Assembly: GCA_031265035.1 (NCBI GenBank)
Contig: JAISDE010000061.1
Location: forward strand, 1 to 44,509
Reading direction: 5' to 3'
Source of the DNA: Peptococcaceae bacterium
Lineage (GTDB): Bacteria; Bacillota; Peptococcia; DRI-13; UBA5745
DNA length: 44,509 nt
Every line of letters starts with the position of its first letter. The stretch's first letter is position 1. A program made the translations under genes and the position numbers. The notes below the pieces were generated by a model. It was not told the origin of the DNA. It saw only the letters and a program-made list of their open reading frames with translations, and searched no databases. Shown here in pieces: positions 18,701 to 22,438 of the stretch.

Positions 18701-18883
18701 GAATATGGGGGATTTATTGATGACGGGGACATCGTGGCCTACGCCCGCGAGGCGGTGAGCGTCCTTTACCGGAGCGGCGTGATTGGCGGCAAGCCCGGCA
18801 ACCTCTTTGACCCGAAAGGCCCGGCCACCCGGGCCGAGGCCGCGGCCATGCTGCGCAGGTTTATCATCGCCGTCAGTGGGTGA
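9737..18883 (+). CDS. giant (3,048-aa) secreted, SLH-anchored cell-surface protein
   Basis: Start at ATG 9737 (AAGGGGG 9721-9727). Signal peptide MRNHKKHQTISRLLSWLLISAMTLTLLPLQGFAAAGE. A Big_2-like Ig segment (LELTPAGTLAMTQGDTLALTVLGARADGSKISL) lies near the C-terminus, then a Gly/Pro/Thr linker. Three SLH repeats follow (FADVRAGNWFFDDVGFAYTNGLFAG, FSDVDAAAYYAAYVEWAREAGVVSG, FIDDGDIVAYAREAVSVLYRSGVIGG). I recognise no domain in the first ~2,500 residues. Confidence 0.9.
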   Translation: MRNHKKHQTISRLLSWLLISAMTLTLLPLQGFAAAGERPSDSPGNGGVTDSIYQVAEDSLAMAELLSRIGLMSADKGNTAQSDDLYIIDGRRYKVIYNDYIACYVEAATGGYTILPTAIGLTSPSALGISLADSLGGAVFNIDGGEYVFGGDYPAKNSYLFRPEVRGDMLVTHWNLGDYIISQYQAITQDVSRENSYAVKVAYAAEYFGPSDTPSEISGRLILPARLGDDGKAPLVTGDGGLLLGGTVLAPVPDEIWMNGGDGPRTFFVLNEHQSDLPAPERMALGDRAELLAGGEPEQFAELSDPAASFTFAPRTLIIPKEGAADLNSNLCAFLVNYGYYNLIPAELSLTVDEAAARESAALSELTLGLLAAGETASLYFDIYANYADKNPVPGMDANEAVKLTDLTWQRPDDENPTRVSVSGEGLRSGTLATTQQTFDIPTGATVRFGVDWVSPGDGERLDLGVNQNYHWPSGSEGNTEFRALAPDADGMYEFVMQSAADEATVEFRVAPKPGYAALNWNHAAVYWSPVPVTVSDWNPSRFAVAPGETVSMTLNGDVPFYLYDAAASPEHYPGLYYYKTGDDHYDPAAAVAFDSAQARYPDEYGVLPLSFTVPNAQGITEVGIDWYPEESDYHNTNYGNWRYASVSVIPRDAVAGGLLSLSGGSWMNGIFRAASGTTITVAVPTLANGYDANSTYLSVFDTYFGEAVAISYGSSPTTTDEPVSLQTLNSASAGVVTFTMPDSDVAVRLAAATYPNVLTEVKYTNSSDTAISLADYDGPKVAVTLLPDPASTNETVALRLEHLLEGGGEPFDLGATTVAITKNGETNTTITPVTNLAGREYSFTMPAYDVKVTVTMKQAAEPTPVHTLSTRPLVEGGEIRGGIWAREQYTTQSERPAFAQDGTSARIPQGATVEYYAYEPDYTDTWVIDAVYLARADDPELKPISSYNLEPGYASGGGGQGSITYRTFTMPNYDAVIVVRGGNYPYPVKTESVYVVGSEVTGGDYLNAPYHPLTNNYVAAYGKEFTLANAGTLAPIDAIMPGEAVYVDAKLIAGYYLKEVWLLMEGWAPRKLDLTPNYSIGWHYTGGFLMSGIGRGATVRAIYEIINPVKITYTLPANSAGLRLDEGGPVRYRTANAEQDPYTGQVTGGTYFAQDIVYLYNDNPYERAYKLREGTNIDLGGGVKADITRNDYIGCVGYDVRLTWPTSGGFPANIPIPIEGQDVDFKPARFDSAVPNHTNPEKFESVTVSGQFSAETIETGEIHLVVYEPSGAYVSGASPILNTYKIDWTKAGGAITPAAGDEPATLTLNLKASGAIIGGPPAFSEMGATDVYENGSLVGTKPNTKRAWGIQVGYRPLFTSNAGAGVEYGTGGKAILAFNLHAAEVNYAAPPKYYMSIARDDWGNYAMKVGATEAEARGNGSYPTTVLTFYNEKGFFADDPANPATVQISDEGAQKVSFNGAMFLETYGLGTLKFTKDSAGVHMEAENMRLQALNTPIFVPSYMFAESRTLMMHMYNGWWYSLNPKSSEEPITFAPWGDISMEIAGWTGFAAGIDEIKVTKNTINIKGGLWMTWPFAQEPFGGFGVERLELEINSGQEYFAKFRGIEAEGKMELPQLYIIGGSAYARINTFENDYYFETEASLGPASLGGFLHLKESERLGIWLPNSFYFDVDLGEVGVPLVPPAIVAWITGVSGGISNMVDTIDYDWRATFFPPITVTIGAHFKLVQLLSFHAEITSGFYSMVGTLTGSVEIGKVGVDILDYLTFEFGLFNEPKRADSNCSRVFAKIGVHVGLALSNQYVKDIIKGQLGGAFGLKFDNPLQTGWDAIISYMEDQSTKLSVTDLINKFALEYAGYAYGGVEVYFPQILVFGPFHLASVYAHMNFSVKLNIQPEGMFASQGWVAGRAQLLEDLRGWFAYNMGNEYLAFGHGDLPDNYANLAGITTYSMAAMSMSASSGAAKELGEGLRVLADTESAGAWSPAPDAGSLSLFAAGSDAAGVKIYSGKEGDIFTRRFTLPAGSADYFLALRQLESGTADAAGADTVADADLRLYAPNGAEITLNVWDAEDTVTENDARFVYNTLAGRDDSGNRTWLIALPEDTGVVGAGEWTLRSSRDVSAQLWQQDAMPGIGGVALSGGASANGGVSLNKGTLTIDLENLKPEGSGNGQQNYQYSIDLVRRAAPDGEALATINVPLGKINSDSVAGNDQEGNTSMVGDYYGDVAQGGSSGNGSGYESKTLTAALSAAMFPDDATPGDYYPEVVLYRYYGTDAEGEALRMPLDRAPGYEPVKVTNGTFADVTVGSLTAVAGQNQSIEVTFEGVSKDSDYADLESAGYLITGYTVAAYGGDGLPAQAMPANPSAGGGSLKGQPADGGPAAGPGYVATGLTLSYDSDGDLPALPAGADDSHTAILTGLTPGQYTAGVTPIFAAQANIAVQSNGVETRTSGAVSVIKAVAPALTLSLAGGVIRDGDGSSKVLCVSPGFELTVSTAANADISVIRYRDKEEMAAATNATSLALSAATYFGKNSATVNGQQIIGGYETLMITAVDSATLGSVNQVVTLVPDLTPPTLIVDNLAGDARVVATTDSSFTIQGRTQPGLTASLLNAGAPMSATSDDAGRFSLNGTLPQDSDGQIAVAVMGASGLTASQTLKVEQVSAADFTALELTPAGTLAMTQGDTLALTVLGARADGSKISLSPDSLTFTAAGSVTVDPGGVLTVIGAGAGTVAARLGALQSNTLQIQAQALAGGDSGTPTPGSGRSGGGGAGAATTNRPRGYIITTPDGKSAVTGADGTITLPGGGGIKTPAGLTVTAPAGTTITLNDVVTPPRSAALSVTLPSGLALNIRQGTAIILDESVPLGYLAVFENQFADVRAGNWFFDDVGFAYTNGLFAGTGAAAFSPNAPMTRGMLVTVLGRLHGIDTSGLKNGTFSDVDAAAYYAAYVEWAREAGVVSGVGGNNFAPGAPISRQDLAVILHNYMRFADKELPRKREYGGFIDDGDIVAYAREAVSVLYRSGVIGGKPGNLFDPKGPATRAEAAAMLRRFIIAVSG

Positions 18884-18936
18884 GATTCCGTTCTGTTCCT
18901 GTTCCAGATGGAACGGCTCGCCAGTATATGTCGTTT

Positions 18937-20322
18937 CTAAAAGTCCTCAAAGCGGATTAGCGCCACATTTCCCCGCCCGGCCGCTTCCGCCTGTATGCCA
19001 TCCGTAAACCCGGTTTTAGCGAATACGTAGTAATACTTCTTTTTATGCGGGAACAGCGCGCTTCTTTCAATCAGTGTCCTCAAAACGCCAGAGCCAACGG
19101 CATCATTTGTCCATTTGCACTCGCAGAATATCCCGCTCTCTTTGTCGTCGGCGATAATGTCAATTTCACATTCTTCGCGTTTCTTGGGGTTATTACCCCA
19201 CCAACGCCCGGCGTCGGTGAACAAAATCGGCGCGCGCTTGGCGACATTCTGCCGCCAAAGATATTGCTTGCAGATCTCCTCAAAAACAGCGCCCATAAAC
19301 CCGGATATCTGGGACTCTATACGCTCATAAGACAGGCCGGTCTCTCCCCGTTGAATCAGCGACATATTATCCGGGACGAAACGATACCAAAACCGGAACA
19401 TGTTGTCCTCCAGGCGATAAACGGTTTTTTTGCTTGTTTCCTCGCGAAACGGGTACTCTTTTTTGATGATGCCGATAGAAATCAGTTTGGCGATATAGGT
19501 AGAACACAAGGCCGTCTCAAGCCCAACTTTGCCCGCTATTTCCGATAACCTGGACGCGCCGTTCGCGATCGCCTTGATAATGGTGTTATACCGCGCCGGT
19601 TCCCGACACTCCTGCTTAATCAAGTTGCCCGGTTCCTCGAAAAGATAGCCGGAGGGGGTCAGAAAGTTAAGTTTGATGTTGTCGGCCACGCTCAAATTCC
19701 TGTCAATCAGTGACATGTACAACGGCACACCGCCCGTAACGCCGTATAAAACGGCGGTATCAATATCGTTGAAACTGTCGCCGAAATAATCCCTGGCTTG
19801 TGTGTAGTCAAAAGGCAATATCTTGAACTGCGCCGTCCTGCGTCCGTAAAGCGGGCTTTTATAGCCCAGTATCTGGTTCTCCATGAAAGACAGCGACGAG
19901 CCGCAGAGAATGATAAATAGTTTTGACGTTTCCTTGTATTTGTCAATATAAGTTTGCAGAAGCGAGGATATAGCCTGATAACTCGCCGCCAGGTAAGGGT
20001 ACTCGTCAATGGCCAGCGCCACGCGCCGCGTCTTTGCCAACTCGAATACCGCCTCAAGCGCGTCCTTGTAACTGGCGAAGACTGGCGACGCGGCGGAGAA
20101 ATCCCGCGCGAGCGCGAAAATACTCTGGCTGAGATTTTCCAGATTCTCTTTGGCGTTGGTCTCCTGCCCTGTGAAATAGATAGATTCCTTATCTTTGATA
20201 AACTCGGCGATCAGCGCCGTTTTACCGACGCGCCGACGCCCGTATATGATCGCGCACTGAAACTTATCCGTATTGTACAATCGCGCTAGCTCATTCAGTT
20301 CTCGTTGCCTGCCGACAAACAT
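18937..20322 (-). CDS. ATP-binding protein (Arch_ATPase/ATPase_2 + DUF234-like C-terminus with PD-(D/E)xK-like motif)
   Basis: Start at ATG 20320-20322 (MFVGRQRELNEL; GGAGG is the complement of 20330-20334). Walker A GRRRVGKTAL, Walker B LAIDEYPYL. The C-terminal ECEIDIIADDKESGIFCECKW looks like E-x-D...E-x-K. Visibly AT-richer than its neighbours. Confidence 0.8.
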   Translation of the reverse strand: MFVGRQRELNELARLYNTDKFQCAIIYGRRRVGKTALIAEFIKDKESIYFTGQETNAKENLENLSQSIFALARDFSAASPVFASYKDALEAVFELAKTRRVALAIDEYPYLAASYQAISSLLQTYIDKYKETSKLFIILCGSSLSFMENQILGYKSPLYGRRTAQFKILPFDYTQARDYFGDSFNDIDTAVLYGVTGGVPLYMSLIDRNLSVADNIKLNFLTPSGYLFEEPGNLIKQECREPARYNTIIKAIANGASRLSEIAGKVGLETALCSTYIAKLISIGIIKKEYPFREETSKKTVYRLEDNMFRFWYRFVPDNMSLIQRGETGLSYERIESQISGFMGAVFEEICKQYLWRQNVAKRAPILFTDAGRWWGNNPKKREECEIDIIADDKESGIFCECKWTNDAVGSGVLRTLIERSALFPHKKKYYYVFAKTGFTDGIQAEAAGRGNVALIRFEDF

Positions 20323-20367
20323 AATATGGCCTCCAGAAAAATGCTCTATCACGATATACTATATCAT

Positions 20368-20402
20368 AATAGAGCAATAATGACAAATAGAGCAATAATG
20401 AC
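20368..20402. repeat. 17-bp tandem direct repeat x2 (AATAGAGCAATAATGAC)
   Basis: Copies at 20368-20384 and 20386-20402, between the kinase-like gene stop (20414) and the ATPase start (20322). Confidence 0.85.
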
Positions 20403-20413
20403 GACTGGGTCGG

Positions 20414-21673
20414 TCAGGCCAGGGAACGAACCATGTCCATGGTTTTCAGGATCCATTCCAGGGCGCCGGCAAAGCGGTAGCCCGCGAGGCCGGCCGCCGT
20501 CAGGATGGCCCGGACGTCTTTTTTGCTGACATCAAGACGAATCAGCTCGCCCAGACCGCCCCGCTCCCGCGCGATCTCCCGGGTGTAATCCCAATATGTG
20601 CCCGCGTAGCCGAAGCCCGTGGCGTAGCCGGCCGGATCGGCGATCGCCGCCTTCACCGTCTCCGCTGTGTCCTCATAAAACAGGCTGCGGCCGTTGTCAT
20701 AGAGCGCGTAGAAGGATTCCTCGCCGCCGCTGATCTTGATAGCCATGTTGGACAGGTGCCGATCCTCTTGCCGGGTGATGAAGTCCAGCAGGATCATGCG
20801 GGCGATATCATCCCGATATTGGGGCCGAACGCCGATGAGATTTTGGTACTCGTTGTCTGAGCGGGCGCCGTCAAACAGGCTGCGGAAGTGCACAAGGTGC
20901 TCGCTGGAAAAATCGTAGCGGAAGGTGGAGAATATCGTGTCTTTATCCGACATGACCGCGGCGCAGACGGATACGCCCAGCTTTTTCCCCAGCAAATACA
21001 CAGCGACCTCGGATTCCGCGTCGGTGGTAAGTGGGCTGATACGCCGCTTATAGACGCCGTATTGGCCCCCCTGCGCGCCGTACCTTTTGATATTGCCGCC
21101 CTCCGGCGTGTCTACGCTGTCGCCCGTAAGGTCGGTTTGCCGCAGGAATACTGACGCGTGCGCGTCGGTCATGGCGTCTTCCAGACGCTCGGCCCGGGAT
21201 TTGGCGATCCACAGCAGATCCTTGGGATGGATGCCCCGGGTAAGTTCCGCGATGAGCGGCGCGTCATACCTGGACAGGCCCAGGCGAAACAAGATCCGCT
21301 CAATGTCCCGCCGCCCGCGGCCGACGACGCGCTCGGCGAGAAATTCGTTGAATTGTTCCGGCGGCCAATTAGACTGGCCCCGGGTATATATGGACATAAC
21401 CTCATTGAATTCCGGGGCGTTGAAATAGACGGCGTTATTTTTGTAGATTACGCCAACGACCTCGTTATCCCATTTCAGATAACGCTTGTCCGACGCGGCG
21501 GGATTGTCCGCCCGCTCCCGGCCGTCCGCCGGCTTACGCGCCCCGGCGGGAATCTGATAAGACTTGCCCGGCTTCAAGATGCCTGGTATTTTCCCCTCAG
21601 TACACAGCATACGCACGCGCCGGTCGGAAATATGCCATTTTTCGCCGGCCTGTTTGGTAGTAATGTAATCCAT
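20414..21673 (-). CDS. HTH (excisionase/MerR-like) fused to a HipA-like Ser/Thr kinase domain
   Basis: The N-terminus YITTKQAGEKWHISDRRVRMLCTEGKIPG is a typical HTH_17-type motif. In the C-terminal half, RYGAQGGQYG resembles the HipA G-A-Q loop. ITRQEDRHLSNMAIK matches the HipA catalytic D-x-H-x-x-N, and ALYDNGRSL matches the Mg-binding YD. Call rests on motif memory only. Confidence 0.6.
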   Translation of the reverse strand: MDYITTKQAGEKWHISDRRVRMLCTEGKIPGILKPGKSYQIPAGARKPADGRERADNPAASDKRYLKWDNEVVGVIYKNNAVYFNAPEFNEVMSIYTRGQSNWPPEQFNEFLAERVVGRGRRDIERILFRLGLSRYDAPLIAELTRGIHPKDLLWIAKSRAERLEDAMTDAHASVFLRQTDLTGDSVDTPEGGNIKRYGAQGGQYGVYKRRISPLTTDAESEVAVYLLGKKLGVSVCAAVMSDKDTIFSTFRYDFSSEHLVHFRSLFDGARSDNEYQNLIGVRPQYRDDIARMILLDFITRQEDRHLSNMAIKISGGEESFYALYDNGRSLFYEDTAETVKAAIADPAGYATGFGYAGTYWDYTREIARERGGLGELIRLDVSKKDVRAILTAAGLAGYRFAGALEWILKTMDMVRSLA

Positions 21674-21700
21674 CTTTTTCCCCTCACTCTCCTGTATTAT

Positions 21701-21750
21701 ATTATACTACAGTTCGGAATAATATCAAGACGCCAACCGCATTATTCCGA
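21701..21750 (-). promoter_or_regulatory. kinase-gene promoter with overlapping 10-bp perfect inverted repeat (candidate operator)
   Basis: Minus strand: TTGATA (complement of 21723-21728), 16 nt, TATAAT (complement of 21701-21706). The inverted repeat is TCGGAATAAT (21714-21723) / ATTATTCCGA (21741-21750) with a 17-nt spacer. One arm lies inside the promoter spacer. Confidence 0.55.
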
Positions 21751-21783
21751 TTTTCGCGTCATTTTTTTGTGTCATTTTTTTTG

Positions 21784-21812
21784 TTGACAACGCCGGCGAA
21801 CTGTGTTATCAT
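21784..21812 (+). promoter_or_regulatory. candidate promoter of the DUF3793-flavodoxin operon
   Basis: TTGACA (21784-21789), 17 nt, TATCAT (21807-21812). It is preceded by GTCATTTTTTT x2 (21758-21768, 21771-21782), an UP-element-like T tract. Confidence 0.55.
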
Positions 21813-21874
21813 GCAGTAACATTAGCGTTTACTAATATAAGCGTCTTCTAACCATGAAGCGACAGGAGTTGTGG

Positions 21875-22438
21875 ATGAGTCGTTCCTTTGAGCAGCTACT
21901 GGCCGTTCATTGCGGCCCTACCTTCGCGGGGATCAAGCCCGCCTGCCTGTTTTCCTGCGAAAAACGACATTGCCCCGTTTACCCGGCGTCGATTTGGGAG
22001 TACGGCCGCCTTTTCCAGAGCCGTAAAATTCATTTTGAGATCTTGGGAGAGAGGGCGGAGCGATTCTTATTGCTGGTCTATCACCGGGATAAGCTGTCGG
22101 CGCAGTTGGCGGGGGCCGGCCAGCAGGCTATTCTGCGGCGGCAAGGCTATCCGGCGACGGCGGATTTGCCGGCCGCTCTGGCGCATTTGAAAAAGCGCGT
22201 GGCCGGGCAAGAGGATTTTCCTCATGAGATAGGGATTTTCCTAGGCTATCCGCCGGCGGATGTCGCGGGGTTTCAGGAAAACCGAGGGAAAAATTATCTG
22301 CTGTGCGGCTATTGGAAGGTTTACGCCAACGCGGGGGAAGCCAAGTCTATGTTTGAGCGGTATGATCGGTGCCGGGAAACGATAGCCCGGCGGCTGTCGG
22401 CGGGGTTGTCCATCGCGCAATTATTTCGCGCGGTATAA
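21875..22438 (+). CDS. DUF3793 family protein
   Basis: Start at ATG 21875 (AGGAG 21864-21868). Motifs LLAVHCGPTFAGIKPACLFS and FPHEIGIFLGYPPADVAGF...CGYWKVY match my memory of DUF3793. Confidence 0.75.
   Translation: MSRSFEQLLAVHCGPTFAGIKPACLFSCEKRHCPVYPASIWEYGRLFQSRKIHFEILGERAERFLLLVYHRDKLSAQLAGAGQQAILRRQGYPATADLPAALAHLKKRVAGQEDFPHEIGIFLGYPPADVAGFQENRGKNYLLCGYWKVYANAGEAKSMFERYDRCRETIARRLSAGLSIAQLFRAV

Follow-up and report, generated by a model that had tools for sequence, protein, structure and literature searches.

Do two defence-like genes that follow one another on the same strand form a single system, or are they only neighbours? This question is raised by a stretch of 44,509 nucleotides (nt) from a Peptococcaceae bacterium (assembly GCA_031265035.1, contig JAISDE010000061.1, positions 1–44,509 of the forward strand), hereafter called the window, in which a gene encoding a domain of the helix-turn-helix (HTH) type fused to a HipA-like kinase is followed by a gene for an ATPase with a nuclease-like tail. 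The original prediction, made from the sequence alone, took them for a candidate toxin/defence pair. Our analysis instead indicates that the two genes are neighbours and not partners, having been acquired separately as one-gene cassettes. They are probably independent and adjacent by chance, the one a solitary, self-repressing kinase and the other an ordinary PDC-S27 gene with a promoter of its own.

Genomic context of the kinase and ATPase genes

ORF (open reading frame) calls, Pfam and PADLOC gave the following two genes:

20414–21673, minus strand: HTH-fused HipA/CtkA-type kinase gene, 419 amino acids (ORF; stop codon at 20414–20416)
18937–20322, minus strand: ATPase_2 plus winged HTH plus DUF234/PD-(D/E)xK gene, 461 amino acids, PADLOC PDC-S27 (ORF, Pfam and PADLOC)

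Both ORFs, their common strand and the 91-nt gap between them (20323–20413, with the kinase gene upstream) are as originally described. The ATPase ORF begins with an ATG at 20322 behind a GGAGG ribosome-binding site, and a GTG at 20352 provides an alternative start. The G+C content is 0.48–0.50 in the ATPase gene, 0.59 in the kinase gene and 0.62–0.68 in the flanking core sequence, so that the ATPase gene is indeed the AT-richer of the two, and the suspicion that they had arrived separately proved well founded.

To assess partnership, we examined 80 genomic loci encoding kinase homologues, among which recurrent co-occurrence of the two families was essentially absent. A DUF234-type ATPase adjoins the kinase homologue in just one of these loci, at 25% identity and on the opposite side. 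An AAA/PD-(D/E)xK ATPase of any kind is immediately adjacent in seven, in all orientations and drawn from at least three subfamilies, and each adjacency is a separate event on the kinase tree. These data do not sustain the proposed pairing of a sensor ATPase with a kinase effector. Four of the closest ATPase orthologues (69–76% identity) have unrelated housekeeping genes on either side and no kinase in their vicinity, and none of the four in-genome ATPase paralogues adjoins a kinase. In addition, a separate ATPase promoter and a hairpin with a T-run between the two genes argue against co-transcription.

A conserved operator around the −35 box of the kinase gene

The palindrome reported at the kinase promoter was recovered as a perfect 10-bp inverted repeat, positioned as follows:

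21701–21728, minus strand: kinase promoter TTGATA-16-TATAAT (11 of 12 consensus positions; layout common to homologues)
21714–21750, no strand: palindromic operator TCGGAATAAT-N17-ATTATTCCGA around the −35 box (perfect 10-bp arms, 21714–21723 and 21741–21750)

Among the 80 loci, 61 HTH-bearing kinase genes had enough upstream sequence for counting, and in 57 of these the motif CGGAAYAAT-N9-11-ATTRTTCCG was found no more than 200 nt from the start, with the −35 hexamer lying between the operator arms. The flanking DNA, 848 kb in all, otherwise contained approximately a dozen loose matches. In the 2.57-Mb host genome the operator occurs exactly twice, at the kinase promoter and in the upstream region of an HTH–Fic gene on contig C120, whereas a reversed-pattern control gave no match. 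As the operator is confined to genes encoding this HTH, the HTH appears to have no regulon beyond its own promoter, and the presence of a conserved and exclusive operator around the −35 box argues for autorepression.

The extra 7–8 nt in the spacer of the window operator (GCGGTTG/GCGTCTTG) resemble a short duplication; with them, the half-sites would no longer lie in helical phase. A further operator-like sequence, CGGGAYATTGAGCGGATMTTGTTYCG, is formed inside the gene (window positions 21300–21325) by the codons of the invariant peptide RDIERILFR and is also present in four homologous loci (L017, L023, L065 and L067); it may be a coincidence or a second site.

The 180-nt divergent region 5′ of the kinase gene is shared with a DUF3793–flavodoxin pair. 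We found no ORF of at least 50 amino acids upstream of the kinase on its strand, and the sole ORF of at least 20 amino acids lying wholly inside the divergent region is a 21-residue chance frame over the promoter; an out-of-frame ORF of 37 amino acids overlaps the kinase start. An upstream antitoxin ORF was therefore rejected as a candidate, since the divergent region yields only that chance frame, in agreement with the earlier observation that no separate antitoxin gene precedes the kinase. Rfam returned zero matches within 18800–22000. Between the divergent kinase and DUF3793 promoters there is a 13-nt tandem repeat (TTTTCGCGTCATT/TTTTTGTGTCATT, window positions 21751–21776), which sits just upstream of the TTGACA −35 box of the DUF3793–flavodoxin operon.

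The kinase protein and its place in the HipA superfamily

The features recognized in the 419-residue protein were as follows:

21548–21667, minus strand: excisionase/MerR-type HTH, residues 3–42 (HTH_17, E 3e-3; PHROG DNA-binding protein, 2.6e-5)
21104–21487, minus strand: conserved middle region, residues 63–190, with a β-hairpin YLKWDNEVVGVI... and then helices (invariant columns)
21086–21109, minus strand: equivalent of the Gly-rich loop, T189-P-E-G192-G-N-I-K196 (aligned with HipA S150-V-A-G153-A-Q-E-K157)
21047–21049, minus strand: K209, predicted ATP-binding lysine (invariant; equivalent to HipA K181 by hhalign)
20747–20764, minus strand: catalytic loop D304-R-H306-L-S-N309 (near-invariant; HipA D309-G-H-A-K-N314, CtkA DRHNGN)
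20690–20701, minus strand: Mg-binding motif Y325-D326-N-G328 (aligns with HipA Y331-D332 and CtkA FDCG)

Residues G192 and K196 are invariant in an alignment of 30 diverse members of the family; across the family N327 and G328 are invariant and D326 is near-invariant. Of the three HipA motifs originally named, DRHLSN (residues 304–309) and YDNG (325–328) are thus near-invariant, but the 'GAQ loop' (199–201) is not conserved: the family reads GVY or GVH at this position, and we rejected GAQ as a family motif and regard it as a local coincidence.

Direct profile matches to the window protein all fell below the Pfam gathering scores, namely HTH_17 at residues 3–42, PI3_PI4_kinase (E 1.5e-3) and HipA_C at residues 217–340 (E 6e-4). 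The HipA_C match that had been anticipated was therefore found, but at 19.9 bits against a gathering cut-off of 30.5. NCBIfam gave only a sub-threshold excisionase-domain match at the HTH, for which PF12728 is precomputed in many of the homologues. The distant relatives P0260, P0261 and P0251 pass the HipA_C gathering score (31–38 bits) and match the profile of the kinase family at E 1e-16 to 1e-18, so that membership of the window kinase in HipA_C is transitive and not direct, the window protein itself being sub-threshold and its distant relatives above the cut-off. More than 1000 full-length homologues were found at 63–73% identity, most of them unannotated, and an exhaustive profile search returned 3875 relatives at E≤1e-3, including many versions of approximately 360 residues without the HTH. 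By these profile matches, the kinase family is large and unnamed and stands on the edge of the HipA_C superfamily.

Sequence searches of the PDB with the single protein or with a shallow profile (A1) found nothing relevant; the diverse profile (A2) alone reached CtkA. The profile of 30 diverse members matched the Helicobacter pylori CtkA sequence with an E-value of 2e-7, and its hhalign alignment with Escherichia coli HipA (E 3e-4) placed every catalytic element in register, beginning at residue 164 of the kinase against residue 125 of HipA. We also built an AF2 (AlphaFold 2) model from 76 sequences, with a pLDDT (predicted local distance difference test score) of 79.6, an earlier run with 18 sequences having been weak (pLDDT 67.8). 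Foldseek placed CtkA at the top for this model (E 7e-7; template modelling (TM) score 0.58–0.60 normalized to the target), followed by HipA and HipT, and all 29 matches at E≤1e-3 were CtkA, HipA or HipT-type kinases, with moderate TM-scores of 0.3–0.6. In the same model, linker residues 52–61 had a pLDDT below 50, the predicted TM-score was 0.60 and no confident interface was seen between the HTH and the kinase. Judged by its conserved residues and its modelled fold, the core of the 419-residue protein is a complete HipA/CtkA-type Ser/Thr kinase of predicted activity, and the original description holds: the kinase is solitary, carries a fused HTH, belongs to the HipA superfamily and has a layout analogous to that of E. 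coli HipH/YjjJ. The conserved middle region (residues 63–190) would be the positional equivalent of the HipA N-terminal domain, residues 65–90 resembling HipA residues 4–32 by inspection only.

The kinase also gave a partial match to model M03A of the PADLOC system PDC-M03 (3e-10), covering the catalytic core alone (residues 215–348); a PADLOC scan of the kinase neighbours did not find the PDC-M03 partner models.

The same HTH and promoter string occur with Fic proteins

The same N-terminal HTH, at 51–66% identity, is fused to Fic proteins, and the promoter string TTGATATTRTTCCGA is common to the kinase gene and to HTH–Fic genes. The string TTGAYATTRTTCCGAWAA precedes HTH–Fic genes in seven viral contigs, in Streptococcus phage Javan422 and in Mycoplasmopsis cynos, and the proteins encoded behind it keep an intact HPFIDGNGR motif. 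These HTH–Fic proteins match the PADLOC models PDC-S04 (6.5e-40) and SoFic (2.6e-30). The viral contigs were scanned with an 18-mer operator string, which gave 33 matches, seven of them genuine HTH–Fic promoters; the others were rejected as chance or as unrelated repeated phage sequence. When phage and plasmid collections were searched by tblastn, no full-length kinase homologue was found and only the HTH matched. Taken together, the pairs of HTH and half-site at kinase and Fic genes indicate that the two elements travel together as a cassette with different effector domains.

The HTH–Fic gene on contig C120 of the host genome (L083:1366–1803) is cut by the contig end, and its HTH is 64% identical with that of the kinase. 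Its promoter carries AGGAATAAT-N28-ATTATTCCT around a TTGATA hexamer; this and the one at the kinase gene are the only two operator copies that the genome contains. On the Butyrivibrio fibrisolvens plasmid pNP243 (L102:2495–4405), a related HTH (36% identity) is fused to a 637-residue AAA-ATPase with a PD-(D/E)xK tail, and this gene lies behind four direct repeats of GATATATTGCCGC; the principle of an HTH plus repeats is thus also used by an ATPase-nuclease. Four proteins of our representative library (P0183, P0184, P0239 and P0242) contain four to seven tandem copies of the same HTH of approximately 50 residues, which stand by themselves or form the C-terminus of a longer protein.

These observations invite a broader idea, which we put forward as speculative and consider doubtful. 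The excisionase-type HTH of approximately 55 residues, together with TTCCG-type half-sites around a TTGAYA −35 box, might be a portable cassette that turns dangerous enzyme domains (the HipA/CtkA kinase, the Fic AMPylase and possibly the AAA-PD-(D/E)xK nuclease) into self-repressed one-gene modules for growth arrest or abortive infection, in which case the HTH–kinase might be a new single-gene anti-phage system that co-localizes preferentially with PDC-S01/S27.

Distribution, neighbours and loss of the HTH

The kinase gene is present in two of 88 genomes of the host's class. The other copy (G001:C32:73613–74875; 67% identity) has an in-frame TAG and is probably decaying. Homologues at 57–70% identity occur in metagenome-assembled genomes (MAGs) of Oscillospiraceae, Acutalibacteraceae, Coriobacteriia, Spirochaetota and Synergistota, many of them from termite guts, and a cultured carrier is Anaerobacterium chartisolvens DSM 27016. 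In a maximum-likelihood tree the non-Bacillota kinases are nested inside Bacillota clades, which points to horizontal spread. The kinase gene is accessory and horizontally spread. An empty-site and synteny comparison found no genome of the same genus, and the DUF3793 orthologues were at most 44% identical.

No neighbouring family was present in more than eight of the 80 kinase loci, and this absence of a recurrent neighbour marks the kinase as a solitary cassette. Approximately 14% of 131 immediate neighbours match PADLOC models at E≤1e-10, the rest being housekeeping genes. The matching neighbours comprise PDC-S01 (six times), SoFic/PDC-S04 (three times) and PDC-S24 (twice), with PDC-S27, RmrT, WYL, pAgo and a type IV restriction enzyme once each; the association of the kinase family with defence-type neighbourhoods is moderate.

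On the kinase tree the HTH has been lost approximately 12 independent times, leaving intact solitary kinase ORFs, and six of 13 HTH-less kinase genes still lie behind the operator. The host genome itself holds an HTH-less paralogue on contig C61 (L082:1498–2622; 374 amino acids, 76% identity), which also lacks the operator. Two copies of the direct repeat GATATAATAACCGG (14 nt) precede it, and the genes immediately behind it are a RelB/DinJ-like plus ParE/RelE-like pair (L082:2750–3372).

The ATPase gene and its control region

The ATPase contains an ATPase_2 domain (8e-25), a winged HTH (residues 247–289), DUF234 (3e-25) and Mrr_cat (3.7e-4, exactly at the cut-off), which bears out the PD-(D/E)xK-like tail read from its C-terminus. 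It matches PADLOC PDC-S27 (PDLC04984) at 4.8e-62 over residues 2–428. PDC-S27 and PDC-S01 are very common single-gene candidates with an ATPase and a PD-(D/E)xK domain that are experimentally unvalidated (PMC12988326). The family of the window ATPase comprises at least 8000 proteins at E≤1e-50, and the host genome carries five DUF234 and 18 DUF4143 ATPase-nuclease genes, scattered and amounting to approximately 1% of all genes. The window ATPase is an ordinary member of the PDC-S27 family and a candidate defence gene. Its control elements lie in the gap behind the kinase gene:

20323–20413, minus strand: intergenic region holding the control elements of the ATPase gene (sequence inspection for promoter and repeats)
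20358–20386, minus strand: ATPase promoter TTGTCA-17-(TG)TATAGT (10 of 12 consensus positions; extended −10, TGnTATAGT)
20342–20376, no strand: palindrome with 17-bp arms, TGCTCTAT...ATAGAGCA, over the ATPase −10 box (repeat search; RNA fold)
20368–20402, no strand: 17-nt direct repeat, two copies (AATAGAGCAATAATGAC), duplicating the left half of the ATPase operator (repeat search)

In ATPase orthologues that lack an upstream kinase, a promoter lies at the corresponding position, and an equivalent palindrome (GCTATAT...ATATAGC) is conserved in orthologues L104–L110. Folded as RNA, positions 20342–20376 form a hairpin of −25.8 kcal/mol (z −3.3) followed by UUUUU, which could serve as a terminator of the kinase transcript. 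We considered the 17-bp repeat as an insertion scar and rejected this, because equivalent repeats or palindromes stand at this promoter position in orthologues and paralogues too; the tandem repeat of 17 nt, like the hairpin, is therefore part of the ATPase cassette. Five in-genome ATPase_2/DUF234 paralogues (including L086–L089) each have their own sigma-70-type promoter within an upstream region of 60–120 nt, and beside each promoter stands a different tandem or inverted repeat of 15–17 nt, for example AATTGTACAGTTAGT or TGAAGTATAATAATC, each present twice. This suggests paralogue-specific auto-operators that are read by the internal winged HTH of the ATPases.

A proposed mechanism and its alternatives

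On these grounds we propose that the HTH most likely binds, as a dimer, the half-sites CGGAAYAAT/ATTRTTCCG around the −35 box of its own gene. The bound dimer would occlude this box, repress the gene and keep its expression low. By analogy with HipA, HipT and HipH, a raised level or activity of the kinase might lead to phosphorylation of an essential target and hence to growth arrest, with T189 as a candidate site of self-limiting autophosphorylation, and the role of the kinase could be abortive infection or addiction-like stabilization. The ATPase would be transcribed from its own promoter, its palindrome probably being bound by its own winged HTH, and would seem neither to need nor usually to have a kinase as neighbour.

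Several points weigh against this proposal. The repeated loss of the HTH argues that the kinase is not lethal without an HTH in cis, and it may be weakly toxic or otherwise controlled. The arms of the window operator are 17 nt apart, whereas 58 of 60 motif-bearing homologues have a spacing of 9–11 nt, and repression may be weakened here. The Pfam matches of the window kinase itself are all sub-threshold, and the taxonomy of many of its homologues rests on MAG binning. Finally, adjacency to AAA/PD-(D/E)xK ATPases is approximately 4–10 times that of random placement, with seven cases observed in 80 loci against approximately 0.6–2 expected from the 0–23 ATPase copies per kinase-carrying genome, and the density of such ATPases is 3–4 times lower in the farther flanks. 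There may therefore be a loose functional link or synergy between the kinase family and these ATPases; we read the excess as shared residence in permissive or defence-type hotspots and not as partnership.

The same excess speaks for a two-gene toxin/defence system of sensor and effector, co-transcribed or acting together. The common strand and short gap in the window also speak for such a system, as do the AAA/PD-(D/E)xK neighbours of four of the 13 HTH-less kinases, two of which (L063 and L071) are preceded on their own strand, at 86 and 42 nt, by the ATPase, and the fusion of the same type of HTH to an AAA-PD-(D/E)xK protein on the Butyrivibrio plasmid. However, approximately 90% of kinase loci have no such ATPase and only the one locus has the DUF234 type, the adjacencies arose independently with different subfamilies and orientations, and the closest orthologues and in-genome paralogues of the ATPase lack a kinase. 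In the window the two genes differ in G+C content and have separate promoters and operators with a terminator-like hairpin between them, and a sign test of HTH loss against ATPase adjacency was not significant. We consider such a system very improbable. A more serious rival, although still an unlikely one, is that the kinase is not a toxin at all but a benign one-component regulator, or a signalling or small-molecule kinase, whose HTH sets its own level and which has no part in arrest or defence. This would accommodate the HTH losses that leave intact solitary genes without an antitoxin, the fact that CtkA, the closest solved relative, is not a classical toxin–antitoxin toxin, the predominance of housekeeping genes among immediate neighbours and the weak PI3/PI4-kinase profile matches. 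It fits less well with an operator found only at genes encoding this HTH and with no wider regulon, with the presence of the same HTH/operator cassette on Fic proteins matching SoFic and PDC-S04, with the patchy, horizontally transferred distribution, with the PADLOC matches among the immediate neighbours, or with the conservation of all HipA-type protein-kinase residues.

A third possibility, about which we are similarly sceptical and if anything slightly more so, is that the HTH acts as an antitoxin in cis. By analogy with HipH, the DNA-bound or HTH-docked protein would be silent and would be activated by release from the operator, so that one polypeptide would amount to a whole hipBA module. 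The layout resembles that of HipH, for which a cis-acting antitoxin role has been suggested by Gerdes et al. (PMC8262856), the operator is conserved, and the HTH, linker and HipA-like body are all present at full length. Against this, HTH-less variants persist and the AF2 model, with its poorly defined linker, gave no confident interface between the HTH and the kinase. Two one-gene cassettes side by side, with a kinase that represses its own gene, thus remain our preferred reading of the locus.

Significance

Solitary HTH-fused HipA-type kinases have one studied example, E. coli HipH. The family defined in the present study is separate from it, comprises more than 1000 proteins, mostly from gut and termite-gut Clostridia, and is captured by no curated Pfam or NCBIfam model. 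With a clear operator and an HTH that is common to defence-matching Fic proteins, it offers a testable system for a polypeptide that is both an effector and its own repressor, and it also allows the question of a phage-defence role of such genes to be asked. In addition, a tempting false positive has been removed, as the neighbouring ATPase-nuclease is not the partner of the kinase.

Comparison with known systems

The Hip kinase tree places HipH (YjjJ) of E. coli K-12 in clade X (Gerdes et al. 2021, PMC8262856; Gratani et al. 2022, PMC9948734). Like HipH, the window protein is a HipA-homologous Ser/Thr kinase that is encoded monocistronically, carries an HTH at its N-terminus and lacks an antitoxin gene next door, and its family too conserves the catalytic motif D-x-H-x-x-N and the Mg-binding D. 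Membership of the HipH clade was considered and rejected: when aligned with E. coli HipH by hhalign, the family profile gave an E-value of 0.14 and a probability of 0.4%, covering the catalytic loop only. The architectures also differ: behind an HTH of the excisionase/HTH_17 type, the window protein has approximately 130 residues at the place of the HipA N-domain, whereas in HipH an extension of approximately 100 residues precedes the part that is colinear with HipT (PMC8262856). The hosts of the window family are mainly Clostridia, and a different palindrome is its operator. By analogy, the kinase, whose family is unnamed, may be seen as a variation on the one-gene theme of HipH-like kinases, with presumed toxicity and a presumed role in defence.

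Sequence profile and fold agree that the solved structure closest to the kinase core is CtkA (JHP940) of H. pylori (PDB 3AKJ/3AKK/3AKL), which has the same DRHxxN and D-x-G motifs. CtkA, however, lacks an HTH as well as any counterpart of the N-terminal region, and has been described as a secreted proinflammatory kinase and not as a self-regulated cassette. With HipBA (E. coli HipA; PDB 3DNT/3TPT) the window kinase shares the kinase fold, the catalytic residues, the Gly-rich loop S/T-x-x-G-x-x-x-K and palindromic operators in the promoter, that of the window being predicted. In contrast with HipBA, there is no separate HipB, the DNA-binding domain being fused to the kinase and of a different HTH class, and the HipA_C score (19.9 versus 30.5 bits) is below the Pfam threshold. 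The window ATPase, for its part, is a full-length match to PDC-S27 with ATPase_2 plus DUF234/Mrr_cat and shows no notable difference from the PDC-S27/PDC-S01 type. Although the effector of the HTH–Fic proteins (PADLOC SoFic/PDC-S04) is a Fic AMPylase (HPFIDGNGR) and not a kinase, and the half-sites in Javan422 and Mycoplasmopsis are direct and not inverted repeats, these proteins, of which Streptococcus phage Javan422 gp20 is an example, share with the window kinase the same HTH and the same promoter string.

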